From an uncultured Opitutales bacterium (GTDB lineage: Bacteria; Verrucomicrobiota; Verrucomicrobiia; Opitutales; UBA9783): a stretch of DNA of 42,145 bases. Numbering within the stretch: position 1 is the stretch's first letter; each line of letters begins with the position of its first letter. The translations under genes were made by a program, and so were the position numbers. Shown one piece after another: positions 13,479 to 32,247 of this stretch. The notes below the pieces were generated by a model. That model was not told the origin of the DNA, searched no databases, and saw only the letters and a program-made list of their open reading frames with translations. The DNA lies in NCBI GenBank assembly GCA_944389435.1, contig CALXMI010000037.1, positions 1-42,145 on the forward strand, given 5' to 3'.

Positions 13479-14546
13479 TCAAATATAATTATTATCAAAC
13501 CGTTCCCAGTCAATGCCATGGTATAAGAATGTATCCAATGCCGCTCTTTCTTTAAGAAAAGTCGACGGAATCTCATCAATTATGTGCTTTAATATTTCTT
13601 TGTCTTGATTGAATTCATACTTCAAACATAAATTCAACCATTTTTCGGAAACTTGAACACAATCATTATATTTCACTAATGCAGAATTAGCTTCATCGGT
13701 AAGTGCAATTTCCCATTTCTCTATTATATATTCCATAGATGTTTTTATCATACACCTGTGTTCGTAAAGCTTCTTGGCAGCGCTCGTTAATCCTCTGAAC
13801 CAATCACAAAATTTATCTCCGTTAATCTCGGTTTGAAGAACTTCTTTAAAAGCGTCCAAACAAGCAATACCCATATAATGATAGTGGTGGTAACCATAAT
13901 CTCCTATTTCTTTTGGATGATGAATAATACATATCTTACCATCTAATTCTTTCCTAATTTTCAAATATGATTCAAAGGCACAATTATCCGGTTTATAGGT
14001 AGGATTCAGTTTCATTGCTGTGGCAGGATATTGAAAATTTATAGACAGTTCCATACCACGAAACGGTCTGTCTAAATAGTATTTTTTTATGTCTTCTATC
14101 GTGGCTTCTATATGTGAATAATCAATACATATGGTACGAAAGCCTCTTTCTGCAAGCCCCACAGAAATCAACTGCCCTTTACTATCGTCAAATCCGTAAA
14201 ATAGAACCTCATGATAATGATCTTCATTTATATATGGCTTAATATACATTATAATATAATATCCGCTTTTTAAGTTATCCTTTAAAGTATCTACTATATT
14301 GGGACTATTCATATCAAAGACTTTCAAAGGTTTTCTTTGCAAAATTTCTTCATGATATGACGGCGGATACATATTCATTTCTCCAAAATGAAAATTTCCG
14401 GCATCCGAATATAAATTATAATGTGAAGCTATCCAGTCCCTGTAATATTGCGATGTTTTTATAATAGCCAATCTATTGTATATCCAGCAATCTGTTACGG
14501 AATCAACATCTTCTATATGTATGGGTAGCTTTAATATCTCTTTCAT
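13479..14546 (-). CDS. Hypothetical protein, possible papain-like (BtrH/C39-like) hydrolase
   Basis: N-terminal DCW and HEVLFYGFDD motifs fit a Cys-His-Asp arrangement. Confidence 0.5.
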   Translation of the reverse strand: MKEILKLPIHIEDVDSVTDCWIYNRLAIIKTSQYYRDWIASHYNLYSDAGNFHFGEMNMYPPSYHEEILQRKPLKVFDMNSPNIVDTLKDNLKSGYYIIMYIKPYINEDHYHEVLFYGFDDSKGQLISVGLAERGFRTICIDYSHIEATIEDIKKYYLDRPFRGMELSINFQYPATAMKLNPTYKPDNCAFESYLKIRKELDGKICIIHHPKEIGDYGYHHYHYMGIACLDAFKEVLQTEINGDKFCDWFRGLTSAAKKLYEHRCMIKTSMEYIIEKWEIALTDEANSALVKYNDCVQVSEKWLNLCLKYEFNQDKEILKHIIDEIPSTFLKERAALDTFLYHGIDWERFDNNYI

Positions 14547-14899
14547 TTAATTCTGTCCTTTATTCATAATTTTTAAATTTATGTCATTGCAAGACATTCG
14601 AAGACGAAATAATAAATATTATTTATGACTTGATTTTTATATTGCGTTGCATTTTTCGATAATTGTTTTTATATAAATATGTTTAGTGCTAGAAATTCTA
14701 TTTGTTTTTCGCTTATTACAACATTACTTAAAACGATAAATAGCTGAGTCCTTATGAATAAGTGACAATTTGAGCTCGGTAGTATGAGAAAATAACGTGT
14801 TTGTAGTTTTGCACCATATTGAGCATTAGAAGTTTTTACGAAGCAAAAATGAAAGATTGTGCGCAACAAGAGCAACAAAAAAGTCAGATAAAAGTGAAG

Positions 14900-15100
14900 T
14901 TAGTAAGTGCGAAATATTTTATTATTTTCTCCAAAAGTGAAATTGTATAATTTCGCATCTACAAAAAGACTGTAATGCGAAGCTATCCAATCTCTATAAT
15001 AGGGCGAATTTTTAGCTATAGTCAATCTGTTATATGTCCAACATTCTGTAACAGATTCTATATCATCAAATTTTAACGGCAACTCAAATGGATTAATCAC
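14900..15100 (-). pseudogene. Truncated paralogue of 13479-14546
   Basis: ELPLKFDDIESVTECWTYNRLTIAKNSPYYRDWIASHYSL aligns with KLPIHIEDVDSVTDCWIYNRLAIIKTSQYYRDWIASHYNL; GTG start with GGAG RBS; stops after 66 codons. Confidence 0.8.
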
Positions 15101-15464
15101 TATAAAACTCCTTTGTTGATAAAAATAAATCCGACATGCAAATGTATTGGTTTGAGACTTCTGGAACATAGTAATTTTTTACAAAGAAAAGCTCTCTTGC
15201 TGTTTTATTGACAAATATTTCTGCGGGATACGTTTTAAGCTAGAAATGTTTGCTGTTTTCTCCAAAGGCGACTTATATAATTTTTTATCTGCATATTCTG
15301 TAACGATTTATTCGTTGCTCATGCTTATTTGTGATTGTTGTTTATTTGTTATTTATAGCATCCTAAAATACAACTATTGTCAACATGCTGCCTATGTATA
15401 GCTCAACATGTCTTGAATACAGATGGCAATCATATTTTTATATCGAAGTGAGTACATATCCTCA

Positions 15465-15881
15465 TCACTTTAACAAACTAAATGATTTCGTGATTTGTTT
15501 AATTTGTAGTTCTTCACCAAATATTGCTATACCTATAGGATTAAGATCAAATAGACAACTTTCGGTAATTGTTTTTTTATATACATCAAATTTATTGTTC
15601 AACGCTTGCCCTTCTTCTGTGAATATAACTAAAACAATGTTGTTAGTTTCATTGGTTTTCTTTATCGTTGAACTCAATTTCAACATTTTACTTAGATTTG
15701 TTTTCAATACAATAACATTGCACCTGATTGCACTATGTATAAAATCTGTTTTATCACAAAGTAGGTGCGAATTGTAAATATCATCACAACACTTTGCTAA
15801 TTGCCCCATCAAAATAGACGCTATATTAGCCGACACTCCAGGAGAAAGTTTTTCATTTACAATAATTGCAACCCTATTCAC
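15465..15881 (-). CDS. DUF2000-like protein (PTH2-like fold)
   Basis: VAIIVNEKLSPGVSANIASIL...GIAIFG...ITKSFSLLK pattern; GTG start after ggaggt. Confidence 0.7.
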   Translation of the reverse strand: MNRVAIIVNEKLSPGVSANIASILMGQLAKCCDDIYNSHLLCDKTDFIHSAIRCNVIVLKTNLSKMLKLSSTIKKTNETNNIVLVIFTEEGQALNNKFDVYKKTITESCLFDLNPIGIAIFGEELQIKQITKSFSLLK

Positions 15882-16434
15882 AAAAACACCTCCCTGATTT
15901 ATTTGCAAAACATACCCAAGGCATTATTACGCTATTTCTTAATATAGCTATAATATTCAATCCAAAATGCTCTGCACATAGTTTATTTGTTATTGATATG
16001 CAATTTGCATCTTCGTCCTGAATAAGTTCCTTACAGGCTTCTATGTTCGAATTAACATAAACAACATCTAAATTATCAACTTGTATATTTATTTCTCTTA
16101 ATAACGAATTGGTTGCTTGATGAAGATAGATTTTATCTGTTTTATGTAAATTTATGTTAGTGTTTTTGCTAACACAAACCAGAGGAGGAAGAGACTCTAA
16201 GAAAACTTCTGTGGCAATTAATTTGTTATCCATAATAAACTCGCTTATATTTGAGTATGCTGCAGGAACCAATATGCAAGAAAGTTCTTTTCTTTTCAAA
16301 GCGTCGGCAGCCGCCTCAAAAGAGTGATATGGTATAATCTCGGAATTGACATTCCATCTTCTTGCTATATACATGGAACAAGTCAAAGAACCAGAAGAGT
16401 CTCCTAGTGTACCAACTTTACATTTACGGGTCAT
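15874..16434 (-). CDS. BacA-like prephenate decarboxylase (bacilysin/anticapsin BacA family)
   Basis: GTLG, SFE, LVPAAY, NS, ITN...GL and IMPWVCF match BacA motifs TLG, TFE, VPHAY, NS, LTN...GL and IPMSWSLF as I recall them. Confidence 0.65.
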   Translation of the reverse strand: MTRKCKVGTLGDSSGSLTCSMYIARRWNVNSEIIPYHSFEAAADALKRKELSCILVPAAYSNISEFIMDNKLIATEVFLESLPPLVCVSKNTNINLHKTDKIYLHQATNSLLREINIQVDNLDVVYVNSNIEACKELIQDEDANCISITNKLCAEHFGLNIIAILRNSVIMPWVCFANKSGRCFCE

Positions 16435-17138
16435 TTTGCATCCTCCGTGAAACTGTTTATACAAGCTCTTCGTTCATTTGTTATAGTCAAATTATATTGT
16501 ATAGGGCTATCAAAACAATCCGCATCAACCAATGTTGTGTGAAACTCACCATTTTCACCGAATGGATCTATTCCGATAGATTTAAAGTGCTGATATGCTA
16601 ATCGATCATATTTTTCCCCAAGCCACTTTGTATCTATGGATGGATGGTTAATTGTAGTAATTATACTTTTAATTTTTCTGTTTTCTAGTTCCGTTATCAA
16701 ATCGTCATACGGAACTAGATACAAAGGGAAACATGGAATCATGCCGGCACTCTTACATAATTTGACTTGTATTATTATATTATCTAATGAATTCAAGTCA
16801 CCAAAAACGACATATTTTACTCCTTGCCGGCAGAAATCTCTGTATAACTTCGTGATTTTATCCCAACGCACCCACCATTTGTAATTAACATATATTATTG
16901 GGATGCGAAGTTTTTGAGCTTGTATATCTATTAAGCTTTGTTTTTGCTCATGAAACAACGATTCATTTTTATCGCTATCTAAACAATGGATTAAACTAAC
17001 AGCTTTACCAACCTCTAATGCTTTGGAAAGAGCAAGGCCAGAATCTTTTCCTCCACTGTACATAAAAACGAACGATTCATTTGTCGGTAAATTTCTATAT
17101 GATAAAAGATTTTCTTTATCAATGACAGTATAGTTCAA
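16431..17138 (-). CDS. Diphthine-ammonia ligase-like PP-loop ATPase (MJ0570/Dph6 family)
   Basis: YSGGKDS, VFGD, WLG, DPFGENGEFHT. Confidence 0.85.
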   Translation of the reverse strand: MNYTVIDKENLLSYRNLPTNESFVFMYSGGKDSGLALSKALEVGKAVSLIHCLDSDKNESLFHEQKQSLIDIQAQKLRIPIIYVNYKWWVRWDKITKLYRDFCRQGVKYVVFGDLNSLDNIIIQVKLCKSAGMIPCFPLYLVPYDDLITELENRKIKSIITTINHPSIDTKWLGEKYDRLAYQHFKSIGIDPFGENGEFHTTLVDADCFDSPIQYNLTITNERRACINSFTEDAK

Positions 17139-17166
17139 TAATTTACACCTCTTATCTGTTTAATAT

Positions 17167-18945
17167 TTATCTATAATTCTCTGCTTGCTTACTAAACATC
17201 TCATAGTATTTGCCTCGTAGAGAGATCAACTCATCATGTGTGCCAACTTCTTTGACCCCCCCATCACCTATCAAATAAATTCTATCAGCGTTTCTAATAG
17301 TAGAAAGGCGGTGTGCAATGATAATAGTTGTCGATAAATTGCTACTGTCGAAAATAAGTTTTGTCATCTCATATTCTGCAATGGGATCCAATGCAGCTGA
17401 AGGCTCATCAAATATTAATAGTCCAAAATCCCCAGATAAAAGTCTTGCGATCCCAATCTTTTGAATTTCTCCTCCGGATAACATAATTCCGCCTTCATCA
17501 AATTCTTTCGTTACATTAGTGTGAATGCTTGCATTGTTTTTGATTAAAACATTTTTAAGATCCGCTCGCATTATAATATCGTGAACTTTTTTTTCGTCGG
17601 AATTATCATATATACACAGATTATCGGCAAAGGACATTGCATAAACATTTGTGTTTTGAAAAGCTACACCTATTCTTCGTCTCAAATCATTTATATCGTA
17701 GTTACGTATATCAACATCATTTATACATATGCTTCCTTTGTTAACATCATAAAACCGCATTAATAACTTAACTATTGTTGATTTTCCTACTCCATTTTCA
17801 CCTACTATAGCAATTTTTTCACCAGGATTGATTTTTAAATTTAAGTGATTTATTCGGAAATTTGAATTTTGATAATTAAAGGAGATATTGTTAAACGAAA
17901 TTTTAAATGCGCCCGTTGGAGCCATAATACCGGCATTTTTTTCTGTTTCTATGTAAGATTTCAGGTCGAAAAAATTTTTAATTCTTTTCGCATACATACT
18001 TAGACGATTTGCGTCTTTAACATAATAAAACATTTCATTTAACGCATTTTTTAAAGTTTCTACTGCTACCATCATAGTTATGTAAGAACCCACTGTTGCA
18101 ATATTTCCGGTATAAATACCATGCGCAATATTTAGAATAACGAATGTTCGCGCAATGTAAAACGTGAAGGTTCCTGTCAAAGCCCACGGAATCATTTTAA
18201 AAGCGAATTTCTTTATAACATTGATTTTCCCATCTTGGGCAGCATTGTATCCTGCGAACAGATAATCTTTTATATTGGTGCTTTTTAAATCTGCGGCATA
18301 GTTATTAGTATAGAAAACTCTATGATAATAATTCAGTTTTCTATCATATGGAATTATCTCCGTATCTTTTTTCACATCATAATAGTTTGTTAATATATGC
18401 ATTATATTCTCAACGATAGTCCCGATTATGGTGACAATCACAGCGATGGGACTTAATGTCGCAATAATAGAAAGCATTGAGATAATGGTTATAATGGAAG
18501 ACACCATTCGATTAACCATGTTTTGAGCATCGGCAGCTTTGGTTGCATACTCACTAACGGCCCATGTGTAACTATCGAAATACTCTGGATCATCAATATA
18601 TCTGTAATCCGTATTTATTGCCTTACGATAAGCGTTAAATTTCAACTGTGCATCAATCTGTGGTAACATTCTATTTTTGCAGAACATATTAAAAATATCT
18701 TCATAAACGGGCTGAAACATCAAAATTAACTGCATTAATATCACAATTAAACATATATCTTTAAAGGAATATCCCCCCTGTAACATATTGATAATTGTGC
18801 TCGGTAGATAGACCCCCACTAATTGAGCAATAGGTATTATTATTCCCCAAAAAAACAAAGAAAAAACTACAAACATTTTTCCATATTTCCAATATGGTTT
18901 GTATAGCCATGCTATATTCTTAATTGATTTAATTATTGTTTTCAC
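17167..18945 (-). CDS. ABC exporter (TMD plus NBD)
   Basis: TM helices, GENGVGKS, LSGGE, DEP, AHRLST. Confidence 0.93.
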   Translation of the reverse strand: MKTIIKSIKNIAWLYKPYWKYGKMFVVFSLFFWGIIIPIAQLVGVYLPSTIINMLQGGYSFKDICLIVILMQLILMFQPVYEDIFNMFCKNRMLPQIDAQLKFNAYRKAINTDYRYIDDPEYFDSYTWAVSEYATKAADAQNMVNRMVSSIITIISMLSIIATLSPIAVIVTIIGTIVENIMHILTNYYDVKKDTEIIPYDRKLNYYHRVFYTNNYAADLKSTNIKDYLFAGYNAAQDGKINVIKKFAFKMIPWALTGTFTFYIARTFVILNIAHGIYTGNIATVGSYITMMVAVETLKNALNEMFYYVKDANRLSMYAKRIKNFFDLKSYIETEKNAGIMAPTGAFKISFNNISFNYQNSNFRINHLNLKINPGEKIAIVGENGVGKSTIVKLLMRFYDVNKGSICINDVDIRNYDINDLRRRIGVAFQNTNVYAMSFADNLCIYDNSDEKKVHDIIMRADLKNVLIKNNASIHTNVTKEFDEGGIMLSGGEIQKIGIARLLSGDFGLLIFDEPSAALDPIAEYEMTKLIFDSSNLSTTIIIAHRLSTIRNADRIYLIGDGGVKEVGTHDELISLRGKYYEMFSKQAENYR

Positions 18946-19786
18946 TTTCTGTCATTCCTTGGTAAAATAAAAAATTAGTAATCGCTATAAAATTATTCGT
19001 ATTACGGTAAGCAACTTCATAAACTTTTGTGTTTTTTAGAAGATTGTTTATATCTTGAAATAGCGTACACATATCTTTAGAATGTCTTACATTATTGATA
19101 ATTGTTTTAAAAGCTTCACTTTTATCTAGTTTGCGTACGAAATCATTTTCGTTGTTGTACTTAGGCAATATTACTACGTCTATATTGTGCACACTAGGAC
19201 TTGTCTTTGGGGGATAATAAATTGTTCGCATTGTTTCTCCATCAAAAGTCTCACCCACCATATTGCTTTCCATCAATTGATCAACATTTTCTCTCACGGA
19301 AATAGGCATATTAAATCCGATATACTTACTTTTAGAAATATAAACGCAATCGTCGTCTATGTATTCTGCGTGCAAAACCAACGACAAATAGCTTGTTAAT
19401 GTTGTTTTACCGGATTTTCTTTCTCCTATCAATAAAATATTTTTATTGTTTAATCTCACACAAGAACCATGAATAATTGTACAATTCAAAATATTTGCAT
19501 ACCAATCTTCTAAAGCCCCAATTAATTGAAAAGCAAAGTGCTTGTCAATTGCATTGCAAAAAATACGATAGGGTGCTTTGTCGATGCATTTTTTGAAGGT
19601 GTTTCCAGAAACTATTTCTAACGCAATATCATTATCCGTGCTTTCATTTTTTGTATCTAAAAAAGTTTTTTTATAAGTGGAAAGCAAAGTTTCAAACAAA
19701 CCAACATTTTTCAAATAAAGGTTTTTGTCTATATGTAGTTTTAATGTAGTGTCATTAATGGTCCGCTTAAAATAAAGCACGATCAT
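18929..19786 (-). CDS. HPr kinase-like P-loop kinase
   Basis: IHGSCV, GERKSGKTT, YIDDD. Confidence 0.75.
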   Translation of the reverse strand: MIVLYFKRTINDTTLKLHIDKNLYLKNVGLFETLLSTYKKTFLDTKNESTDNDIALEIVSGNTFKKCIDKAPYRIFCNAIDKHFAFQLIGALEDWYANILNCTIIHGSCVRLNNKNILLIGERKSGKTTLTSYLSLVLHAEYIDDDCVYISKSKYIGFNMPISVRENVDQLMESNMVGETFDGETMRTIYYPPKTSPSVHNIDVVILPKYNNENDFVRKLDKSEAFKTIINNVRHSKDMCTLFQDINNLLKNTKVYEVAYRNTNNFIAITNFLFYQGMTESENNN

Positions 19787-19798
19787 TCTCCTTATCTT

Positions 19799-20098
19799 TT
19801 AAACGTATTCTTTGATTAGTTCTTCGCAACAGAACTCTTTCAAAATTTTATTTACATCATCAAGCAAGCTTATATTTGTTTTTTGCGGTGCATATGTGGA
19901 TATAATTTTTTCACAAATATATTGGCTGCTGATATCTAAATTTTGTTCATTTGCCTCATTAAGAATATTCCAAATAAAAGAAGCGGATTGATTTAAAGAA
20001 ATTATACGCTTGCGTTGCTTGTCGTATGCAACAATCTCGTTCTCTATATTTTCTATTTCAAGTTTCGTTAATATCATTTCTTTGCCGTTAATTTTCAT
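19799..20098 (-). CDS. PqqD family RiPP recognition element (RRE)
   Basis: IVAYD...IISLNQSASFIWNIL...DDVNKILKEF...LI; about 100 aa, next to a radical SAM gene. Confidence 0.85.
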   Translation of the reverse strand: MKINGKEMILTKLEIENIENEIVAYDKQRKRIISLNQSASFIWNILNEANEQNLDISSQYICEKIISTYAPQKTNISLLDDVNKILKEFCCEELIKEYV

Positions 20099-20108
20099 AA
20101 TTATACTC

Positions 20109-21461
20109 CTAATTGCTTGTTAATTTATAAACAGAATTTTTTCCAAAAAGAACGTTGTCGACTAATTCAGCTTTCCAACCAAAGCATGTATTTCCACAAA
20201 GAATCTCGGTAAATACATACGACCAGTACTTTCGAATTAATTGACACTCATAATCCCTGTATTTTGTATCAAAGGCATTGTCTCTCACAACCTTTAGCGG
20301 ACAGCCGCCTTTGCAAAAACGATACGCTATACATCCTCTGCACTCATCAAAAGAATTCTTCACCACATCTAAATGTTGATCGGTATAGCTGTTATAAAAA
20401 TCCACCATATTGTCTTTTATTTCGGCAACGATGGTTTTGAACTGCTCGGCCTCAATACAGTTGATAATTTTTCTATCTGGCATCAGCCAAAAACATTCTG
20501 CAAATGTAGCTCCGCAACAGTATTCTGCAATAGTATTATTAAATATCGGTGTAGAAATATATAACTTGTAATTCTTTTCCTTTGCGTAGTTATGTAAGTT
20601 CACATAATGGTGAAAGAAATCGTATTTTTCTATGTTGTATTGATCTTTGTTGCCGTTTTTTAATGCACGCCCAGACGGAATTATTGGCATAATGCTCCAC
20701 TCGTTTATACCAGAACTGTTGTTTGCAATGTTATCACAAATTTGCTTGAGGTTTTCAAAGTTTTCATACCAAACAGTTGATCTTACCGTTAGTGAGCGTC
20801 CGCTTTGGCTAAAGTCTTGAAGAGTTTTTTCGACGACTGGAGATGAATTTGTTGTGTCAGAACATTTTCTGTTTCTGTTTTGCAAAAAAGATGTTCCATC
20901 ATACGACAACATAATTTTGTCAAAATGTTTAATTATAAATTTTCTCTGAGAGTTATTAAGCATTCCATTTGTCGTTAATTCAAAATAATAAGGCACAGAG
21001 CAGTTATCACAAAGATTTTTTATGGCACGTATTGACTCTTTAAACAACTCCCAATTAAATGTAGGCTCACCACCTCCCGTGAAAAAGAATCGCAAAGGTT
21101 CAGAATCATCGTTCTTATCAATAAATTGATATATTTTCCTCTTTTTAATTGCTTCTTTAACAAAAACGAGAATATCTTTCACTGACAGTAAGTCCTGATT
21201 TCCGCTGGTTGAAGAATAACTACAGTAATTACACCTTAATTGACAATTGTATGTCAAACATATACCAATCAAATTTATTGGCTTGTTTTTGGCAGACATT
21301 TTTGTTTTATCTAATTTATCTAAACAACTTTTTAATTCTTCATAATTATCAGTTTTTCTACAAATAGTATTTATTTCGGTTATTACGCTTTGTGCTGCGT
21401 CTTTGGGATAAAATATCAGTCTTTCCGAGTCGAAAATATAATTGCCTATATAGTGGTACAT
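20109..21461 (-). CDS. Radical SAM/SPASM peptide maturase 1
   Basis: CQLRCNYC, GGGEP, TTNG, SYDG; SPASM cysteines CCGA...NC...CRGCIAYRFCKGGCP...EC; ATG 21461 after ggagg. Confidence 0.9.
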   Translation of the reverse strand: MYHYIGNYIFDSERLIFYPKDAAQSVITEINTICRKTDNYEELKSCLDKLDKTKMSAKNKPINLIGICLTYNCQLRCNYCSYSSTSGNQDLLSVKDILVFVKEAIKKRKIYQFIDKNDDSEPLRFFFTGGGEPTFNWELFKESIRAIKNLCDNCSVPYYFELTTNGMLNNSQRKFIIKHFDKIMLSYDGTSFLQNRNRKCSDTTNSSPVVEKTLQDFSQSGRSLTVRSTVWYENFENLKQICDNIANNSSGINEWSIMPIIPSGRALKNGNKDQYNIEKYDFFHHYVNLHNYAKEKNYKLYISTPIFNNTIAEYCCGATFAECFWLMPDRKIINCIEAEQFKTIVAEIKDNMVDFYNSYTDQHLDVVKNSFDECRGCIAYRFCKGGCPLKVVRDNAFDTKYRDYECQLIRKYWSYVFTEILCGNTCFGWKAELVDNVLFGKNSVYKLTSN

Positions 21462-21480
21462 AAACGCATCTTCCTCCAAA

Positions 21481-21512: not shown

Positions 21513-21535
21513 TATATATATTTCTTATGATAGCA

Positions 21536-23859: not shown

Positions 23860-23898
23860 TCATTGGCAAATTATAAATCGCAAATCAGGGAGAATATT

Positions 23899-24708
23899 AT
23901 GTTAACGATAGCCATACACGCACCATTCCAAACAAGCTTTACCATAAAAACCAACTGCAAAGAGTTAGCAAATGCAATTGTGTTAAGGCACGGTAAATAT
24001 GCAACTAAAAGTACAACTCAATCAGATATTACAATTATCGCTGAAAAAGAACAATCAGGTTATAGCATATACTTTAACGGCAATTCTGTAAAAACAAATG
24101 CTCCCTTAAAAAAAATAGAAGACATTATGTATGACAACCGTAAATATGAAGAAACAATATTTGCCGTTCACGGCGGTGCTGTAGAATACAATAATGGCGC
24201 ATATCTTGTTGTTGCCTCCACTACAAGCGGAAAAACCACCCTTACATCATATCTAGTTTCAAACGGTTTTGGATATATTACTGATGATTGCATACTTCTT
24301 GACCGTGAAAGCTTTAAAATATATCCGTTTACAACTCCCCTGCATTTGCGCAAAGGCGGTTATAACGCTCTGAAAGCTTTAGGTTGTGCCCCTGAAAGCT
24401 ATGATTTTTTAGACTCGGTTTCCATTAAAAGATATGTTTATACGCCTAATAATTCTGTTTCAAAACCGCTGCCGCTTAAAAAAATATTTTTTATCACAAG
24501 AACGGAAGATACGAATATGATAGAAGAAATGAATACCACAGAAAAAATAACCGCTCTTCTCAAATCGCCTATTACTGAATATGAAATTGGCGGCAGTTAT
24601 CTTTCGTTTATTTCCAAACTGTCCGCTATTCCCTGCAAAAGGCTTTATTACAGCAATATGGATTTTGTCGCCGAGGTAATTAAATATGAACAACAATCTT
24701 ATAATTAA
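23899..24708 (+). CDS. HPr kinase-like P-loop kinase 2
   Basis: VHGGAV, ASTTSGKTT, YITDD. Confidence 0.75.
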   Translation: MLTIAIHAPFQTSFTIKTNCKELANAIVLRHGKYATKSTTQSDITIIAEKEQSGYSIYFNGNSVKTNAPLKKIEDIMYDNRKYEETIFAVHGGAVEYNNGAYLVVASTTSGKTTLTSYLVSNGFGYITDDCILLDRESFKIYPFTTPLHLRKGGYNALKALGCAPESYDFLDSVSIKRYVYTPNNSVSKPLPLKKIFFITRTEDTNMIEEMNTTEKITALLKSPITEYEIGGSYLSFISKLSAIPCKRLYYSNMDFVAEVIKYEQQSYN

Positions 24709-25405
24709 AATTCTGCCTGCTGTTTTAAAAACCAAAGGACAGGCAGAACTCACTGTAACAGGGACGAGCATGGAACCGACTCTAATTGAAGGTGATTTGA
24801 TAACAATCATAAAGTGTGATAATTACACAATCGGCGATATTCTTGTTTTTGACTATAAAAACGAGGGGCTTCTGGTTCACAGATTACTAAAAACATCCAA
24901 CCGATACTTCTGTAAAGGCGATAATTCTTTTAGGCTTGAAGATATGCCTGCAGAAAACATTATTGGAAAAGTCACAGCTGTAAACGGAGTTCCAATTGCC
25001 GTTTGGCAAAAATGGAAAATGGATTTGTCTTATGCTGTCAATCGATCATTTGTTAAATCAAAATATGATATTACAAATACAATGCAGACAGATATATATA
25101 AACTGTATTCAGCCTTAATTTTAGGAAAAGAGGAAAACAAAATGAATTACAAGAAAACAGATAAAATGGACTTTATTCTTTCAGATGAAACTTCACTTGC
25201 CGTATTTGATCCGGAAAGCAACAATACATACTTTTTTGACGAAACCGGGATAGACATTCTAAATTGTCTTGACATCCCTTGTGATATTGAAATGCTTTTA
25301 GATATGCTTTGCAATATTTATTCAGCATCCCCTGAAGATATCAGGGCAGATGTTGAAGAATTCTTAGCAGATACAGTAACCAAAGGAATTGTTGAAATAG
25401 TATGA
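24686..25405 (+). CDS. S24/S26 signal peptidase-like domain fused to a C-terminal PqqD/RRE
   Basis: GTSMEPTL..GD, VHRL, KGDN; C-terminal 87 aa PqqD-like (FDPESNNTYFFDETGIDIL...DVEEFL...GIV). Confidence 0.85.
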   Translation: MNNNLIIKILPAVLKTKGQAELTVTGTSMEPTLIEGDLITIIKCDNYTIGDILVFDYKNEGLLVHRLLKTSNRYFCKGDNSFRLEDMPAENIIGKVTAVNGVPIAVWQKWKMDLSYAVNRSFVKSKYDITNTMQTDIYKLYSALILGKEENKMNYKKTDKMDFILSDETSLAVFDPESNNTYFFDETGIDILNCLDIPCDIEMLLDMLCNIYSASPEDIRADVEEFLADTVTKGIVEIV

Positions 25406-26448
25406 ACATTAAAACCGTTTATGTTGAAATAACTAATTTCTGCAACTTAAATTGTATCACTTGCTATAACCGATCGGGCTTAAACTGTCAAAGAACAGAA
25501 TTGTCATTTGAACAAATCGAGAATATTATCAAACTTTTTACGCCTTTAGGATTGAAAAGATTTTTATTATCAGGTGGAGAACCTACACTGCATTCCGAAT
25601 TTGACAAAATTCTTGATTTAATCGATAAATATCCAAAAATTAATTTTGGTATTGTTACTAACGGAACAAATCATAATAAAAAGCTATTAGAATGCCTTAA
25701 CTCAAGAGACAATTTAAAACTTCAGATAAGTCTTGACGGTTCCTGTGAAGAAATAAATTCCAAAACCCGCGGTATAGGCAATTTCAAAAAGACCTTAAGC
25801 TTTGCCAAACAAATACGCACCGCTCATAATATTCCTCTGCTTAAAATGGTCATATCACAAGGCAATTATGACGATGTAGAAAATTTCTGCAATTTAGCGA
25901 TTTCATTAGGCTTTACACCTGAACTTGCATTTATATACAAATCCGGAAACGGGTGTGACGAATGGGGCACTAAAGAGCTTACATCCATACAAAAATTAAA
26001 AATATTGAAACTTGTCGAGCGCATTAATAAAGAAAGAAATGCAGGTATATTTCTTCCAATCTGCACCACAAAATGTCCGTTAGCAGAAGGAATCAATGAA
26101 CTTTCTTTCTGTATTAAAGTAGACGGTTCAATTCAACCATGTCAATCCCTTTACAGTGAAAAATATACTGTCGGAAATGTTCTTTTCTTCGATAAAAAGC
26201 TATTTTTACAGAATATAAATAATATTTCCGATTTAGCAAGGCAGCGTTGTGAACAAGACTATGGCTGTGAAAAATGTATGCTGAATGACATTTGCGGCAG
26301 AGGATGCATGGCAGAAGCTGTAAATCTTCACGATAATCCATTTGCAAGTGACGGCAACTGCGAATATAGAAAACAACAATTTATTAACTTTAATCTAAAA
26401 GGAGGTATATCTGTACTTGAAAAAGAAGACAAAACATTCCACGCTTAG
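25402..26448 (+). CDS. Radical SAM/SPASM peptide maturase 2
   Basis: CNLNCITC, SGGEP, TNG, SLDG; SPASM CP...DGSIQPC...CEKCMLNDICGRGC...C. Confidence 0.9.
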   Translation: MNIKTVYVEITNFCNLNCITCYNRSGLNCQRTELSFEQIENIIKLFTPLGLKRFLLSGGEPTLHSEFDKILDLIDKYPKINFGIVTNGTNHNKKLLECLNSRDNLKLQISLDGSCEEINSKTRGIGNFKKTLSFAKQIRTAHNIPLLKMVISQGNYDDVENFCNLAISLGFTPELAFIYKSGNGCDEWGTKELTSIQKLKILKLVERINKERNAGIFLPICTTKCPLAEGINELSFCIKVDGSIQPCQSLYSEKYTVGNVLFFDKKLFLQNINNISDLARQRCEQDYGCEKCMLNDICGRGCMAEAVNLHDNPFASDGNCEYRKQQFINFNLKGGISVLEKEDKTFHA

Positions 26449-28228
26449 CAACAATTTATACATACTGAAACAAATACATATTGCAAGCCGCGGAAGAATA
26501 TTTTTTGAACTTTCGAGTATTATACTAAACACCGTTTCAAATATACTACTTGATGTTTATATGTTCAAATATATTATTAATGGTATTCAAAAGGGCTTAG
26601 ATTTTAAAAGACTTGTCGGTTTTATCCTGATTATTACGGCGTTTCATATTTTCACCGCTACCGTTGTCGACTATTTTTGGGAAAAATTCGCACCTGTCTC
26701 GAATCAAAAAATATATAGCCATATTCAAAAAAACTTGTTCGAAAAGGCCTCGTCTGTCGAGTTTGCCTGCTTTGAAGACCCTGACTTTTACGATAAATAT
26801 GTTAAAGCAATAAGCGAAGCATACAATAGAACCAATGAGGTTCTAAGGTCGTTGTGCGACATTGTATATTTTATTTTTAACGCTTTTGCTACCTCGTTTA
26901 TCATATTTACAATTGATCCCGTGCTGATAGTATTCGCGCTGATACCCTTTATTGTAAGTATTCTGTTCGGGAAAAGGCTTAACAAAGTGCGATACAATTA
27001 CACTATGGAAATGCAGGAAAAATCCAGAAAACGCGACTATGTAAAAAGGGTGTTTTACCTTGCCGACTACGCAAAGGAAATGCGGCTCACGAATATAAAC
27101 AGGGTTATGTTCAAAAAATTTTACGAGGCGATAAAGGAGCTTAAGGGGGTTATTAAAAAGCACGGGCTTAAGGTTGCGTTATTGGATTATTTGTTCATAG
27201 CGGTTAATGATATTATCGTTTACCTCGGCGCTATTCTATATTCCGCCTATAAAACCCTTGTTTCAAAAACAATGCTTTACGGCGACTGCGTGGTTGTTAT
27301 AAACGGAATAAACAATGTCGCGTGGTCACTGCGCAATATGGCTGATGTTTTTATTCAGTTTCAGAATCACTCGCTTTATATCGACAATCTGCGCTATTTC
27401 CTTGAATACAAGCCCGCAATTTATGAAAACAGGGAGGGACTCGACCCGCCCGATACCTGCGCGCTCACCCTTAAAAACGTAAGCTTTAAATACGCAGGTC
27501 AGGAAGATTATTCCCTTAAAAATATTAATTTCACAATAAAGCAGGGCGAAAAAATCGCCTTGGTCGGTCACAACGGCGCGGGTAAAACCACCCTTGTTAA
27601 GCTGTTAATGCGGCTTTACGATGTGACCGAGGGCGAGATACAGCTAAACGGCAGACCGATAAAGGAATACAAGCTTAAAGGCTACCGTAATCTGTTCTCG
27701 GTTGTGTTTCAGGATTTCAAGGTCTTCGCCGTATCGGTTTTGGAAAATATTTTGCTTAAAGCAGATATTACTAAGGAAGAAAAAAATCGCGCGGTAAGCG
27801 GTATGAAGGACGCGGGTATTTATGACAAGGTAATGTCCCTTGAAAAGGGCTATGAAACCGTGCTTACAAAGGAATTTGACGAAAACGGAGCGGTGCTTTC
27901 GGGCGGAGAGACCCAGAAAATCGCTATATCAAGGGTGTTTGCAAGGGACTGCCCCATCGCGATTTTAGACGAGCCTTCAAGTGCGCTTGACCCGCTGGCG
28001 GAGTACGCCATGTACGAGGCTATGATGAATGCGTGCAGGGACAAGGCGGTAATCTTTATTTCCCACAGGCTTTCCTCCGCGGTTTTGGCGGACAGGGTTT
28101 ACCTTATGGAAAAGGGAGAAATAATTGAAAGCGGCACCCACCGAGAGCTGCTCGAAAAGGGCGGCAAATACGCCGATATGTGGAGCAAGCAGGCGGAAAA
28201 ATACCGTAAAAAGGAGGAAGATGTATGA
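26417..28228 (+). CDS. ABC exporter subunit 1 (TMD plus NBD)
   Basis: GHNGAGKT, LSGGE, LDEP, SHRLS. Confidence 0.93.
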   Translation: MKKKTKHSTLSNNLYILKQIHIASRGRIFFELSSIILNTVSNILLDVYMFKYIINGIQKGLDFKRLVGFILIITAFHIFTATVVDYFWEKFAPVSNQKIYSHIQKNLFEKASSVEFACFEDPDFYDKYVKAISEAYNRTNEVLRSLCDIVYFIFNAFATSFIIFTIDPVLIVFALIPFIVSILFGKRLNKVRYNYTMEMQEKSRKRDYVKRVFYLADYAKEMRLTNINRVMFKKFYEAIKELKGVIKKHGLKVALLDYLFIAVNDIIVYLGAILYSAYKTLVSKTMLYGDCVVVINGINNVAWSLRNMADVFIQFQNHSLYIDNLRYFLEYKPAIYENREGLDPPDTCALTLKNVSFKYAGQEDYSLKNINFTIKQGEKIALVGHNGAGKTTLVKLLMRLYDVTEGEIQLNGRPIKEYKLKGYRNLFSVVFQDFKVFAVSVLENILLKADITKEEKNRAVSGMKDAGIYDKVMSLEKGYETVLTKEFDENGAVLSGGETQKIAISRVFARDCPIAILDEPSSALDPLAEYAMYEAMMNACRDKAVIFISHRLSSAVLADRVYLMEKGEIIESGTHRELLEKGGKYADMWSKQAEKYRKKEEDV

Positions 28229-30000
28229 AAGAAAAGGGCAGCGTACTGTTTATGATTAAGCAAGCCGTAAAATATGTTCCCTCCTTCTGTCTCTTTACAG
28301 TTGCGGAGGGTGTTGTTTGGGGCTGTATACACTCCTTTACAAGTACGCTCTTTATAAAGGCGCTGTTTGACAGAATAGAAAGCGGCGTCCCCTATTCTGA
28401 AATACTCCTGCTTGTCCTTGCTATGGCGGTTTTTCTTATTTCAGCCTACATATTCCACGAATGGTACTGGCAGTTTATAGAGCCGAAAGCGCGGCAGGAG
28501 CTGCACAAAAAAATGCAGGAGCAGCTATACAAAAAAGCGGCTTCCATAGACCTTGCCTGCTATGACCGCCCCGACTTTTACAACGACTTTGTCTGGGCGA
28601 TTAACGAGGCGGACTCAAGAACAATCGCAATATGTGAGGACATAGGCAAAATAATAAACCGCCTTATCACATCGGCGGTTATAATAGGCGTTTTATTCAC
28701 GATAGATTTGTGGATTGTGGCGGCGGTGCTTTTTTCGGTTGTCTTCAGCGTAGTTTTGCAAAGACTTATTACAAAAATTTATTTTAAGCGCGACAACGAG
28801 CTTAAACCCTTTCAACGCAGGGCTGAATATATAAGCAGGGTTCACTATCTTGCGGACTATGCAAAGGAAATCCGAATGAGCGAAGCCGAGGACTTACTCT
28901 TAAAGAATTTTGACACGGCTGTAGGAAGCAATATTTCAATAACCAAGTCCTACGGCAATAAGCTGTTTTTTCTGAATCTTACAAGAACCACCTTTACCGC
29001 CGTAATGTTTGACGCGGTTATTACAATACTGCTACTTTATAAGATGATGATAGAAAAATCCGTAACTCTCGGCGGATTTGCCGCCACATTCAGCGCTATG
29101 TGGAAGCTTTTTTGGACGCTTAATAATCTTATGGATTATTTTGCAAAATTCAAGGAGCATAAGCTTTATGCTAACAAGTTCAGGGTGTTTCTTAATTACG
29201 AGCCAACCGTGTGCGATAAGGAGGGTTGTACCGAATTAACCGCCCCGTTTAAGACCCTTGAGCTTAAAAATGTCTCCTTTGCCTACCCTGAAGCCGAAAA
29301 AAACATAATAAACGGCATAAATATGACCGTAAAGGCGGGGCAAAAAATCGCCCTTGTTGGCTACAACGGTGCGGGCAAATCAACCCTTGTAAAACTGCTT
29401 TTAAGACTATATGATGTTTCAGGCGGCGATATTTTTATAAACGGCAAGAGCATTAAGGATTACACCCTTTGCTCCTACCGAAACAAATTCGGTACCGTTT
29501 TTCAGGATTTTCAGCTCTACGCCGCCGATATTGCCGAAAACGTCCTTACCGACGAATATTCCGAAGAAGACCAGTCCCGCGTACTTGAAGCCCTTAAAAA
29601 CAGCGGATTTGAAGAAAGGCTTTCTTCCCTTAAGGAGGGTATTCACACACCGCTTACAAAGGAATTTGACCAAAGCGGAATTAACCTTTCGGGCGGCGAG
29701 GCGCAAAAAGTCGCAATATCAAGGGTGTTTGCAAAGGACTGCGAGATAGTTATTTTAGACGAGCCCTCAAGCGCACTCGACCCTATGACCGAATACGAAT
29801 TAAACAATACTCTGATGACCGCCCTTGACAAAACGGTTATAATAATTTCCCACCGCCTTTCTACGACCCGTATGGCGGACGTTATCTATATGCTTGAAAA
29901 CGGCGAGATTATTGAACAGGGCAGTCACGACGAGCTTATGCAAACGGGCGGCAAATACGCCGAAATGTTTTTAAAGCAGGCGGAAAAATATAATTTTTAG
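28225..30000 (+). CDS. ABC exporter subunit 2 (TMD plus NBD)
   Basis: GYNGAGKS, LSGGE, LDEP, SHRLST; ATGA overlap suggests a heterodimer. Confidence 0.93.
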   Translation: MKEKGSVLFMIKQAVKYVPSFCLFTVAEGVVWGCIHSFTSTLFIKALFDRIESGVPYSEILLLVLAMAVFLISAYIFHEWYWQFIEPKARQELHKKMQEQLYKKAASIDLACYDRPDFYNDFVWAINEADSRTIAICEDIGKIINRLITSAVIIGVLFTIDLWIVAAVLFSVVFSVVLQRLITKIYFKRDNELKPFQRRAEYISRVHYLADYAKEIRMSEAEDLLLKNFDTAVGSNISITKSYGNKLFFLNLTRTTFTAVMFDAVITILLLYKMMIEKSVTLGGFAATFSAMWKLFWTLNNLMDYFAKFKEHKLYANKFRVFLNYEPTVCDKEGCTELTAPFKTLELKNVSFAYPEAEKNIINGINMTVKAGQKIALVGYNGAGKSTLVKLLLRLYDVSGGDIFINGKSIKDYTLCSYRNKFGTVFQDFQLYAADIAENVLTDEYSEEDQSRVLEALKNSGFEERLSSLKEGIHTPLTKEFDQSGINLSGGEAQKVAISRVFAKDCEIVILDEPSSALDPMTEYELNNTLMTALDKTVIIISHRLSTTRMADVIYMLENGEIIEQGSHDELMQTGGKYAEMFLKQAEKYNF

Positions 30001-30013
30001 GAAGTGTACGAAT

Positions 30014-31201
30014 ATGGACAAGGAAAAAATTTTAGAAGTATTAGGAAATATCATTGATATAAATAAAGAACAGCTTTTAAAAACTTCAGTTGATACGAAA
30101 CTGACCGATTTGGGGCTTACTTCAATTCAATTCATTCAATTTATTGTGGCTATTGAGGAAGAATTTGAAATTGAAATTTTAGACAGCGATCTTATAATGA
30201 CAAATTTCGAAACGGTAGAAATGCTTTTCAGTACATTAGAAAAGTATTTCACCCCCAAAAGCACTTTAAAAAAAGTACTTATTTGTGATTGCGATAATGT
30301 ATTATGGTACGGCATTTCAGGCGAAGAAGAAATATACATAGATGCTATAATCCTGAAATTTCAAGAAACCTTAATAGAATTATACAACCGCGGAATACTT
30401 ATATGCCTTTGCAGTAAAAATGAGCCGGAAAATATAGAAACGGTATTTAACTCTCTTGAAATGCCGCTGAAAAAGAATCATATCTTAATATCAAAAATAA
30501 ATTTGACGGATAAAGCCACAAACATAAAAGAAATTGCTCTTGAATTAAATCTTTCTGCCGATAGCTTCGTTTTTGTTGACGACAGCAAATATGAGCTTGA
30601 CCTTGTATCTTCTATAATTCCCGATATTACAACCGTCCTTGCGGATTATTCTAATTGCGATTTTATAGAAAAAATCAAAGGATTTTTTGACGGGAGTTCT
30701 ACAGATATTAACCGTACACAACAGTACAGAGATCAAAAAGAACGTGAAAAAGAAAAGCAGCGTTATGCAAGCGCTGAAGAATTTAATGCATCGCTCAAGA
30801 CCGAGATAAAATGTGAAACGGCGTCACCTGCTCAAGCAGCACGAATATCTGAATTATCACAGCGAACCAATCAATTTAATCTTTCCGATGTAAGATATAC
30901 CGAAGAGGAAATTAATTATTTTATCAGGGATGAAGGATATTGCGTGTATGTCCTTTCCGCTTCAGATAAATACGGCGATATGGGATTGGTTGGTGCCGCG
31001 GTGGTACGCAAAACAGAAAATCCTGTCATTATAGGTTTTTTTCTTTCTTGTCGGGTCTTCGGAAGAGGTTTTGAAGAACATTTTCTAAATCAAATCAAAA
31101 GCAATTTTGCTGTTCCAATGTATGGTATTTATAAAAGAACAGATAAAAACAAGAGGTTTGAAGATTTTTACTCTAAAAATGGAGTTGAAATATATGAATA
31201 A
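30014..31201 (+). CDS. Acyl carrier protein fused to an FkbH-like HAD-IIIC glyceryl transferase/phosphatase
   Basis: ACP: LTDLGLTSIQFIQFIVAIEEEFEIEI. FkbH: DCDNVLW, SKN, FVDDS, QRTNQFN, DKYGDMGLVG, LSCRVFGRG. Confidence 0.87.
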   Translation: MDKEKILEVLGNIIDINKEQLLKTSVDTKLTDLGLTSIQFIQFIVAIEEEFEIEILDSDLIMTNFETVEMLFSTLEKYFTPKSTLKKVLICDCDNVLWYGISGEEEIYIDAIILKFQETLIELYNRGILICLCSKNEPENIETVFNSLEMPLKKNHILISKINLTDKATNIKEIALELNLSADSFVFVDDSKYELDLVSSIIPDITTVLADYSNCDFIEKIKGFFDGSSTDINRTQQYRDQKEREKEKQRYASAEEFNASLKTEIKCETASPAQAARISELSQRTNQFNLSDVRYTEEEINYFIRDEGYCVYVLSASDKYGDMGLVGAAVVRKTENPVIIGFFLSCRVFGRGFEEHFLNQIKSNFAVPMYGIYKRTDKNKRFEDFYSKNGVEIYE

Positions 31202-32247
31202 ATATATCGAAGCCGTTCGCGATTTAGCAAACGAAAAACAAACAAGCTTTGATATTTCTGAAATATTATACAATCATGGTTGTATCTATCTTCTTTCAAA
31301 AATAAAGGGCAAGAATAAATATACAGATAGATTAAAAGCAGAGAATTTATTAAATAAAATATGTATTAACGAAAGATATAAAACCTGTTCTGCAGTCTTC
31401 CGCGAATTTAAAGAAAACAATATCTCCTATGCCGTAATAAAGGGCGCTGTATTATCTGCTGCGGCATATAATAATCCGTTTTGTCGACAATCAGGAGACA
31501 TAGATATACTTATCAACCGAAAGGATATTGATAAAATAAAAGAAATAATGCTTCGAAACGGCTTTGTCCAAGGAAAAATTACCGAAAATGGAGTTGAGCC
31601 TTTCTCTCGCAAGGAAATATTATTCCAGACCGCTATGTCTCACCAAACTGCTCCCTTTGTTAAAAAAAACAAACAATAAAATATGTCCATATATTAATGT
31701 TGATCTTAATTTTGATATAATGTGGGGTGAAAGTGAAACAAAGGCAGATATGGAATTTGTTCTTCAAAACACTATGGAAACGGCAATACTGGGCGTGATA
31801 TTTAATAAGCTCTCTCCGGAAATGGAATTCATATCGCTTTGCCTGCACCACTATAAAGACTTAAATTCCATTTATTTGCTATATGAGCGTGGATTAACAT
31901 TAAGCCATTTCTGCGACATATATTTTTTCATTAAGAATTGTAACATAGATTCAGAAGCTCTTTATAATTATTGTTTAAAATTGAATGTCGGCAAATATGT
32001 TTACTATTGCTTATACTACACCAATCTTATATTTGACGATGAAATCATAAAAAAATATATGTTATTATTGCATTCAACTGAATCAGATGCAATTCTTAAT
32101 TCCTTCGGCCTTTCCGATAAAGAACGGCAAAGCTGGGATATTGACTTTTTTACAAGGCTGTTTGATTCAAATATTAGTCAATATTTGGAAAATTCACTTT
32201 CTGAATCTGATTTGAAGAAAATAATTATAAATCAACAGCTTATGTAG
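31194..32247 (+). pseudogene. Nucleotidyltransferase family protein (NTP_transf_5-like), split by a frameshift at the A8 run 31662-31669
   Basis: IKGAVLS..AY...RQSGDIDILI in the first frame, VDLNF...LCLHH in the second; removing one A gives continuous APFVKKTNNKICPYINVDLNF. Confidence 0.8.

Follow-up and report, generated by a model that had tools for sequence, protein, structure and literature searches.

We analysed a stretch of 42,145 nucleotides (hereafter the window) assigned to an uncultured Opitutales bacterium; it is one entire contig, CALXMI010000037.1, of a 0.95-Mb genome bin in 125 contigs. Two divergent gene clusters occupy positions 13479-32247, each with a radical S-adenosylmethionine (SAM) enzyme carrying a SPASM domain (rSAM1 in the leftward cluster, rSAM2 in the rightward), a recognition element (RRE) of the kind that serves peptides made by ribosomes and modified after translation (RiPPs), a putative HprK-like kinase and ATP-binding cassette (ABC) transporters. 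A listing of open reading frames (ORFs) and family scans bore out the gene content that a preliminary description of the same DNA had assigned to the two sides. The two small peptides that it had pointed out, P1 of 34 aa and P2 of 36 aa, proved to be real, belonging to conserved precursor families linked to the two radical SAM enzymes. A six-frame search with their common pattern, [YW]xxP...IxAxAxS, returned exactly two occurrences in the window against a mean of 0.0 in 200 shuffled sequences. The features on which the argument turns are the following.

21536-21640, minus strand: precursor P1, 34 aa, MVYETPAIVVYDEEELRAIEARAASCCPTGKTNS; GGAGG 7 nt upstream of the ATG; YxxP leader
21787-21815, minus strand: sigma-70 consensus promoter of P1 and the leftward operon, TTGACA-17-TATAAT, 12/12; the region's best site
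20109-21509, minus strand: rSAM1, radical SAM/SPASM maturase (PF04055; TIGR04085 SPASM, 30.2 bits against a cutoff of 27)
19799-20098, minus strand: RRE1, a discrete RRE of the PqqD family (PF05402, 26.1 bits against a cutoff of 23.4)
18929-19786, minus strand: HprK-related P-loop kinase-like protein 1 (TIGR04352, E 8.6e-6, 25 bits against a cutoff of 200; Walker A motif GERKSGKTT)
17167-18945, minus strand: MsbA-like ABC exporter (PF00005; MsbA-type NCBIfam matches under their cutoffs)
22010-22120, minus strand: precursor P2, 36 aa, MKKWVKPVVVELSAKELAKHIQAAARSGQCFAGDFR; TTG start overlapping the TGA stop of the regulator gene; ribosome-binding site GGGGGGA; WxxP leader
21965-21998, minus strand: intrinsic terminator immediately 3' of P2, with a 15-bp stem, 9 GC pairs and a T tail
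22117-23181, minus strand: P2-coupled ArsR-like regulator, 354 aa, with an unassigned N-terminal domain of ~250 aa (NF033788, E 5e-12, residues 267-338)
23641-23859, plus strand: 72-aa CxxC...CxxC zinc-ribbon-like ORF just upstream of the kinase gene; not a conserved part
23863-24708, plus strand: HprK-related P-loop kinase-like protein 2 (TIGR04352, E 2.9e-7, below cutoff)
24686-25405, plus strand: archaeal/SipW-type signal peptidase I (S24/S26) fused to a PqqD-type RRE (PF00717, PF10502, PF05402)
25402-26448, plus strand: rSAM2, radical SAM/SPASM maturase, 348 aa (PF04055, 77.8 bits)
26417-28228 and 28225-30000, plus strand: two MsbA-like ABC half-transporters (MsbA-type family matches)
30014-31201, plus strand: fusion of an acyl carrier protein (ACP) to FkbH (PF00550; TIGR01686, 210.5 bits against a cutoff of 146.65)
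31107-32247, plus strand: NTP_transf_5 transferase gene in two ORFs (PF14907 profile positions 41-124 and 137-248)

We read the locus as two adjacent, divergent RiPP clusters on a low-GC island of a conjugative element, with P1 going to rSAM1, RRE1 and kinase 1 and P2 to the rightward enzymes, and put the probability of this reading at about 0.7. The products appear to be short cross-linked, probably phosphorylated peptides of two families so far uncharacterised, each defined here with its own precursor.

Two precursor families and their enzymes

The first ATG of rSAM1 comes 26 nt past the end of P1, although the likely true start of the enzyme is Met17 (coordinate 21461). The core of P1, ..SCCPTGKTNS, recurs as SCCPTG.TNS in a peptide upstream of the radical SAM gene of locus L071, to which P1 is 71% identical. 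Homologues of rSAM1 form 112 clusters, none named beyond 'radical SAM', and some come from archaeal or planctomycete assemblies; among the assembly labels are Acetatifactor, Planctomycetaceae, Methanocorpusculum and Nitrososphaerota. Our co-occurrence counts rest on 27 rSAM1 loci and 13 rSAM2-type loci. Of the rSAM1 loci, 26 came from a metagenome scan with a family-specific C-terminal alignment and the last, L001, from a Faecalimonas metagenome-assembled genome (MAG). A full-length rSAM1 alignment run against genome contigs picked up generic radical SAM patterns, with L001 the useful relative among the matches listed and the copy in L002 truncated.

The gene set around rSAM1 is partly conserved. 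An RRE homologue follows the rSAM1 homologue in 22 of the 26 metagenome loci, and an HprK-like gene comes after that RRE in 9 of the 26; homologues of the leftward ABC gene come after the kinase in L076-79 and L090, and genes for an S24 peptidase and an NTP_transf_5 protein are present in L076-79, L090 and L001. Nineteen of the metagenome loci include sequence upstream of the rSAM1 homologue, and in 17 of them, as in L001, a P1-type peptide lies just there; twelve of these peptides are distinct. Searching 1.84 billion proteins with a P1-family profile gave 38 matches at E<=1e-3; 35 of these are peptides, 34-93 aa in length. YxxP is present in all 35 and CxC, once or more, in 30; the common form of the core is C.C[TS].SG[SA][KR], and the subtype to which P1 belongs has CCP[TV]GK.NS or C.C[PH]TGKSTHS. 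Two subgroups can be told apart by their leaders, which in 17 peptides end in ..IE[AL]xAxS immediately before the first Cys and in 15 peptides contain ..EWA[VI]P.. ahead of longer cores. The Ser-containing [AL]xAxS ending was found in all five distinct loci that carry a kinase and in none of the six distinct loci with the radical SAM enzyme and RRE only, which ties this Ser to the kinase and peptidase module. On these counts the precursor family that includes P1 is real and linked to rSAM1.

Some members of the family have other surroundings. Plain rSAM1+RRE clusters with EWA-type precursor leaders (L075 2523-5417, L080 and L083 3128-4998) are followed by genes for ankyrin-repeat and YARHG-domain proteins, or for VWA and PP2C phosphatase proteins, with no kinase, peptidase or exporter gene downstream. 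The L001 precursor (5428-5541, plus strand; core SCACHCNGRY) matches a thiazolylpeptide-type bacteriocin family at 21.6 bits, below the cutoff of 30, and its cluster additionally encodes a B12-binding radical SAM protein and M16 peptidases. No NCBIfam family covers P1, P2 or four of the five precursors related to them.

rSAM2 belongs to a large family: its homologues at E<=1e-20 fall into at least 320 clusters (90% identity), the majority of them from assemblies of gut Clostridia. Identities of the 120 listed range over 54-98%, and the few named ones belong to Lachnospiraceae, Oscillospiraceae and Clostridia MAGs. Five of the 13 rSAM2-type loci are close (the window and L102, L103, L104 and L105) and eight are distant (L121-L128). 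Close homologues occurred in 4 of 401 genomes sampled in the order of an Oscillospiraceae MAG and distant ones (35-40%) in 7 of 399 sampled in its class, and none at E<=1e-60 in 401 sampled genomes from the family of genome G401.

P2-type peptides are present in 10 of the 13 loci, window included. The core of P2 itself is ..RSGQCFAGDFR. Its close relatives, all exactly 36 aa long, start with MK.W..P, end in [FL]R and have Ser27 without exception; they directly follow an ArsR-like gene in L102, L105 and L111 and lie between the FkbH and transferase genes in L104. Among the distant loci, six of eight (L121, L123 and L125-128) encode WxxP peptides, usually placed between the ArsR-like and RRE genes, with cores of the form ..[AG][AG]CS.[YF]....C... 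Trp, Pro and Ser27 are invariant in eight aligned P2-type peptides, and the Trp of WxxP is kept in every W-leader peptide recovered, as is the Tyr in the 35 P1-family peptides.

The enzymes travel with these peptides. Homologues of kinase 2 occur in 11 of the 13 rSAM2-type loci, those of the ArsR-like regulator in 10, and NTP_transf_5 in all five close loci. In L103 the order is identical to that of the window (kinase, peptidase-RRE, rSAM2, ABC, ABC, ACP-FkbH, transferase), and in L102 and L105 the ArsR-like gene adjoins kinase, RRE and rSAM2. L104 has the rightward set minus the ABC genes, plus a homologue of a 355-aa protein of the leftward side (see below); this set is divergent from an ArsR-like gene and another radical SAM/kinase cluster. 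The ACP-FkbH gene adjoins the transferase gene in the window, L103, L104 and L121. The peptidase-RRE fusion scored 51.0 bits with TIGR02228 against a cutoff of 51.85, matched SipW as well, and has a candidate catalytic triad of which Ser28 is kept in 9 of 10 homologues and His65 and Asp79 are invariant. We further observed that the opposite strand of L104 (170-6061, minus) encodes two HprK-like proteins, a 539-aa fusion of a weak S24 match to a radical SAM domain and a further radical SAM protein, and that this divergent twin layout contains a 38-aa candidate ORF near 6181-6297.

The preliminary description had placed both peptides between the clusters. P2 is not a second substrate beside the leftward cluster, being coupled to the ArsR-like gene and co-occurring with the rightward enzyme set. 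On a rival view both peptides would be leftward substrates of a two-peptide system, and the rightward precursor would be something else, such as the 72-aa ORF at 23641-23859. Both peptides are indeed on the minus strand upstream of rSAM1, their leaders share [YW]xxP...IxAxAxS, and the 72-aa ORF is Cys-rich and directly ahead of the rightward kinase gene. P2-like peptides, however, occur in nine other rSAM2-type loci that have no rSAM1 homologue, and no credible P2-like match was found in the 26 metagenome rSAM1 loci, L001 or 67 other loci, the best chance match being L096 at E 0.19. Moreover, a strong terminator separates P2 from P1, which has its own 12/12 promoter, and the 72-aa ORF has no homologue among ORFs of at least 70 aa in L102-L105, L111-L112 and L121-L128. 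We therefore consider a two-peptide leftward system unlikely; by its gene neighbourhood P2 is part of the rightward cluster and not of the leftward one.

The coupling of P2 to the ArsR-like gene suggests autoregulation or signalling. That P2 is instead a C-terminal extension of the regulator was considered and rejected, since its counterpart is a separate ORF 5-19 nt past the regulator stop in L102, L105 and L111. The last of these is an orphan pair (3433-4603, minus strand) of a second ArsR-like gene and a P2-like peptide on a different contig of the L102 genome, with no modification genes in the surrounding 14 kb examined. The window, too, has a second ArsR-like paralogue (35873-36817, minus strand), which lies past a NACHT/STAND gene described below, is 32% identical to the P2-coupled regulator and has no peptide ORF behind it.

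The paired enzymes of the two clusters are, as judged from their alignments, not recent duplicates: rSAM1 and rSAM2 have no significant mutual similarity, the kinases are 38% identical over 65 aa around the Walker A motif only, and RRE1 matches the rightward RRE at E 1.6.

A proposed pathway and its alternatives

In the pathway we propose, P1 would be transcribed from its own promoter and serve as substrate of rSAM1, RRE1 and kinase 1, and P2 would be translated from the end of the ArsR-like regulator transcript and pass to kinase 2, the peptidase-RRE fusion, rSAM2, the NTP_transf_5 transferase and ACP-FkbH. An RRE would first bind the [Y/W]xxP leader, with Tyr or Trp keeping the two pathways apart. 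The radical SAM/SPASM enzyme may then cross-link the conserved Cys, most likely through a thioether, the linkage favoured by the nearest curated relatives of the radical SAM enzymes. Next, the kinase would phosphorylate the invariant Ser after the AxA-like site (Ser25 of P1 and Ser27 of P2), the conserved C-terminal Ser34 being an alternative, paeninodin-like phosphosite in P1. A signal-peptidase-like enzyme would cut the leader near AxA, giving cores of ~11 residues, the transferase would decorate the product, and the ABC pumps would export it; the leftward cluster may borrow the rightward peptidase and transferase. The substrate of FkbH-type enzymes is 1,3-bisphosphoglycerate, the glyceryl unit of which they transfer to an ACP. 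Given this activity and the position of the ACP-FkbH gene beside the transferase gene, we propose glyceryl-ACP, supplied by FkbH in the rightward cluster, as the transferase's missing partner.

A more specific version can be formulated, in which the Tyr- and Trp-leader pathways are orthogonal, their ~11-residue cross-linked peptides are (poly)phosphorylated on the invariant Ser and then esterified with a glycerate-derived unit (supplied by FkbH and transferred by NTP_transf_5), and the P2 product is an autoinducer sensed by the N-terminal domain of the regulator. We regard this combination as speculative and, taken as a whole, rather doubtful; if true, it would provide the first substrate and function for 'nucleotidyltransferases' of the LppN/PsmN type.

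Several observations weigh against the assignment of P1 to the leftward and P2 to the rightward enzymes or against the chemistry proposed for them. P2 shares its strand with the leftward operon and is only 370 bp upstream of P1, so that read-through into that operon is possible despite the terminator. A P2-like peptide is missing from three of the 13 rSAM2-type loci, namely L103, where an IS-type (insertion sequence) integrase gene splits the upstream region, L124, which is at a contig end, and L122, which is a radical SAM gene alone. P2 matches the P1-family profile at E 0.019 over 18 columns; because this alignment is confined to the leader, the families are at best distant relatives that share the leader's recognition and processing ends. 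The two RREs are not detectably alike, neither radical SAM enzyme reaches the cutoff of any curated family, the HprK-like calls combine a Walker A motif with weak matches of 25-30 bits where the cutoff is 200, and the leftward cluster has neither a peptidase nor a transferase of its own. For every member of both families, cross-linking, phosphorylation, acylation and leader binding are predictions from sequence.

The transferase gene raises a further difficulty, as it is frameshifted in this assembly at a run of eight A residues (31662-31669). The nucleotidyltransferase gene of the preliminary description is thus present as NTP_transf_5, but split into two ORFs, which had gone unremarked. The run is A7 (one base fewer at 31662) in one contig each of sequencing runs X2 and X19, and in silico deletion of one A gave a single open frame of 379 aa. 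With A8 and A7 both found across samples, the split comes down to homopolymer length, through an error of assembly or a real switch prone to slippage. X19 is an RNA-library run with contigs ~96% identical over 24201-26718 plus several other rightward pieces. These contigs, which as products of an RNA library cannot prove transcription, match relatives of the rightward genes only and leave most of the leftward cluster uncovered, which tells neither for it nor against it.

Occurrence in other samples bears on whether the clusters act apart. The central 7 kb (19000-26000) is present, fully or partly, in 20 runs from 11 studies, labelled as chicken, bovine and other gut metagenomes and 'terrestrial metagenome', among others. 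In run X3 a single 26.7-kb contig has both clusters side by side, with 68 differences across 14415-24331 and a more diverged rightward part. In X2, sequencing depth was 18-30 over the rightward genes and 2-6 over the leftward genes, which indicates that the rightward set also occurs without the leftward one. The two clusters could nevertheless form one interdependent pathway, in which the leftward enzymes need the rightward peptidase and transferase and shared machinery matures both peptides. Consistent with such dependence, L076-79, L090 and L001 have S24 peptidase and NTP_transf_5 genes along with their rSAM1 homologues but the leftward cluster does not, both clusters are joined on the X3 contig, and the same AxAxS-type site ends both leaders. 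The depth difference in X2 argues for separate units, as does the far greater abundance of the rSAM2 type (at least 320 clusters against 112 for rSAM1). In addition, the RREs are unrelated in sequence, and the leaders differ in Tyr versus Trp, a difference that was discriminating in the study of the linear polyphosphorylated peptide (LPP) system as set out in its main text (PMC13381572). We view interdependence as possible, though it is not the arrangement we would expect, and retain two adjacent clusters, each with its own precursor, as our reading.

Remaining genes and the mobile island

The other genes of the two clusters are listed below.

13479-14546, minus strand: 355-aa protein, family unassigned (no Pfam or NCBIfam match); candidate Cys/His (papain-like) enzyme
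15465-15908, minus strand: DUF2000 protein at the end of the leftward operon (PF09391, 59.9 bits)
15874-16464, minus strand: short PDT-domain protein, 196 aa, of BacA-like size and with no ACT domain (PF00800, 32.7 bits against a cutoff of 25.2)
16431-17138, minus strand: PP-loop ATP pyrophosphatase, Diphthami_syn_2/Dph6-like (PF01902, 94.6 bits; TIGR03679, 80 bits, below cutoff)
23271-23609, plus strand: XRE-family helix-turn-helix protein (PF01381)

The PP-loop, BacA-like (PDT) and DUF2000 genes, which the preliminary description had included in the leftward cluster, have homologues in none of the 27 rSAM1 loci, and we do not regard their place in the pathway as established, despite their tight packing behind the ABC gene. 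The XRE-family protein has no homologue in other rSAM2 loci except one weak match, in L112. The description of the 355-aa protein as papain-like is tentative: Cys20, Trp21 and His112 are invariant or nearly so across 27 homologues, but family support is lacking, with no Pfam domain in any of its 54 homologue clusters, only noise in a Pfam scan of the 27 members (DnaA_N in 11, a weak Peptidase_C39_2 match in 1) and nothing significant in a PDB sequence search with the family profile. A homologue (25% identical over 353 aa) lies inside the rightward-type operon of L104, and the protein is a candidate companion of rSAM2-type clusters, possibly a papain-like enzyme.

In agreement with the earlier placement of the clusters on a conjugative element, both lie between conjugation and replication genes, the flanks encoding a TraG/VirD4-type coupling protein, RepA_N, a serine recombinase, DUF6744, DUF3854, Rad52 and DUF6094 proteins. 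GC content drops from 42-46% to 25-36% across ~13-37 kb, with the exception of 27-30 kb at 44-45%. This stretch (27000-30000) covers the distal part of the first ABC gene and all of the second and resembles the element backbone, whereas the cluster genes around it have a GC content of only 30-34%, a difference that suggests that the rightward operon is perhaps mosaic in origin.

Other genes of the element stand apart from the clusters. In the backbone, at 2412-4875 (plus strand), another radical SAM protein (361 aa), unrelated to both clusters, is encoded beside a DUF6094 methyltransferase. Immediately downstream of the transferase gene, at 32271-35669 (plus strand), is the gene for a 1132-aa NACHT/STAND NTPase, which matches part of the antiphage protein EruA weakly and whose C-terminal part looks hydrophobic on reading its sequence. 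Rfam scanning gave zero RNA family matches within the window.

The host of the element is open to doubt. The peptidase-RRE fusion was found in 0 of 400 genomes sampled from the window's own order, and the relatives of the enzymes come from Clostridia assemblies; possibly the contig is a mobile element that was assigned to the wrong host on binning. The bin's own relatives are genomes of about 1 Mb. Plasmid sequences gave no match to the island by megablast or to either radical SAM enzyme by tblastn, and viral contigs gave none in scans with the peptidase-RRE fusion, rSAM2 or the rSAM2 alignment. An island foreign to its bin and bearing a frameshifted transferase gene might also be decayed cargo that makes no product, with the small ORFs mere chance frames. 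We consider this very improbable, as both peptides are conserved at the protein level across diverged loci with their functional residues invariant, which contradicts chance frames, all other genes are intact, and the A8 frameshift is missing from two other samples. Because the clusters are on mobile DNA that recurs in chicken, cattle and other gut metagenomes, their products may matter for gut-community competition or signalling.

Comparison with known systems

Among radical SAM RiPP systems, the clusters resemble those of ranthipeptides, SCIFF peptides and sactipeptides in having radical SAM/SPASM enzymes with full auxiliary-cluster cysteines (in rSAM1, CX3CX2C and seven conserved C-terminal Cys), RRE-dependent recognition and short Cys-containing cores. 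The best curated matches of rSAM1 are PapB (freyrasin), CcpM and SCIFF maturases, all far under their cutoffs; for PapB (NF047865, cutoff 340) rSAM1 scored 86.6 bits and rSAM2 62.6. PapB ranthipeptide cores have Cys-X3-Asp/Glu acceptor motifs. This spacing is seen as CFAGD in P2 and CMSCD in L102 and is not kept in L105, L111 and L104, and the P1-family core CxC[TS]xSG[SA][KR] had 0 matches among the curated precursor families of NCBIfam. To our knowledge, a set of kinase, signal peptidase and transferase is not part of thioether-forming radical SAM RiPP systems.

For rSAM2 the best curated matches are the mycofactocin maturase MftC (TIGR03962, 107.8 bits against a cutoff of 265) and StsB-type sactisynthases (87.1 against 625), and the likeness extends to its small size of 348 aa, a PqqD-type RRE partner and a short peptide with a conserved C terminus. 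Like the mycofactocin or PQQ pathway, the rightward system might accordingly mature a cofactor derived from a peptide, or else a signal used inside the cell, and not an exported product. The fixed length of 36 aa and C-terminal [FL]R of the close P2 relatives would suit such a role, and so would the coupling of the precursor gene to a regulator and the orphan regulator-P2 pair in one genome. The mycofactocin precursor has a C-terminal Val-Tyr; P2 ends in FR and has no Gly-Val-Tyr C terminus. Relatives of the other mycofactocin genes were not seen, the MftC score is well below cutoff, and both the window and L103 encode two dedicated ABC exporters and a signal-peptidase-like leader peptidase. 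We therefore think a cofactor or internal signal quite improbable and continue to favour an exported rightward product. The SynChlorMet (SCM) equivalogs likewise fell short of their cutoffs (ScmC 19 against 125 bits, ScmD 19.4 against 100, ScmE 76 against 400 and ScmF 75 against 400).

With the lasso peptides paeninodin and pseudomycoidin the window has in common a putative HprK-like kinase and an NTP_transf_5-type transferase, a discrete RRE and a WxxP/YxxP leader. In pseudomycoidin, according to a review, the kinase polyphosphorylates the C-terminal Ser and the NTP_transf-like PsmN adds a hexose to the phospho-Ser (PMC9266682). Paeninodin and pseudomycoidin kinases target a C-terminal Ser, and the P1 subtype also has one (..GKTNS). 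Unlike lasso clusters, the window has no lasso cyclase or B2 cysteine protease among the 20 proteins scanned over 13-37 kb; its leader peptidase is of the serine signal-peptidase type, and radical SAM enzymes are present.

The closest parallel is the LPP system (lppA-K-B-S-D-N of Paenibacillus alginolyticus; Popov et al., Nat Commun 2026), the core of which, as described in the main text, comprises a SipW-like peptidase, an RRE, a kinase resembling HprK, an NTP transferase and an exporter (PMC13381572). The preliminary description knew of no characterised cluster with this gene set, without excluding one. The accessory set is now published as this LPP core, and only its combination with radical SAM enzymes is new; no paper joining the two, and no characterised cluster with the full gene set, was found in the literature searched, which included the LPP main text. 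According to the same main text, LPP precursors carry a YxxPxVLxHQxIxFETxxS motif, the kinase places several phosphates on core Ser3, the peptidase cleaves after Thr-1 with the RRE needed and cuts unphosphorylated precursor poorly, and the choice of RRE is set by leader Tyr versus Trp (PMC13381572).

Several features are shared. The window peptides have a [Y/W]xxP leader followed by a conserved Ser near the cleavage site; the rightward cluster, and it alone, has a signal peptidase I of SipW/archaeal type, with S28/H65/D79 at positions similar to S29/H68/D93 reported for LppS. The leftward RRE is a discrete PqqD-type protein, whereas the rightward one differs in being fused to the peptidase, and a PF14907 transferase (frameshifted, with both halves present) and MsbA-type ABC proteins in both clusters extend the parallel. 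PDB sequence searches with RRE1 and the fusion protein found nothing significant and so gave no direct tie to LppB structures.

There are also differences. Each window cluster has a radical SAM/SPASM enzyme conserved alongside its precursor family, whereas the LPP main text defines clusters that have none and never uses the words 'radical', 'SPASM', 'Clostridi' or 'FkbH' (PMC13381572). LPP precursors, as described there, are 35-200 aa long with variable tails, in contrast to the ~11-residue cores with conserved Cys predicted here; the middle of the LPP motif (VLxHQxIxFET) is unmatched, and the Tyr-to-Ser distance in P1 is 4 residues longer. The window adds a precursor-coupled ArsR-like regulator and ACP-FkbH, and hosts of window-type clusters are Clostridia-type gut bacteria as opposed to the Bacilli reported for LPPs.

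Together, these comparisons point to the window as two putative hybrid pathways of radical SAM and LPP type, one with Tyr-type and one with Trp-type leaders, in which radical SAM cross-linking would be joined to the phosphorylation and signal-peptidase logic of LPPs. With both leader types side by side, the locus is a natural test case for the leader discrimination rule. The LPP transferase was inactive in a heterologous host, perhaps for want of a partner, and was not reconstituted in the work reported in the main text (PMC13381572); the conserved adjacency of ACP-FkbH and NTP_transf_5 genes offers a concrete lead on it.

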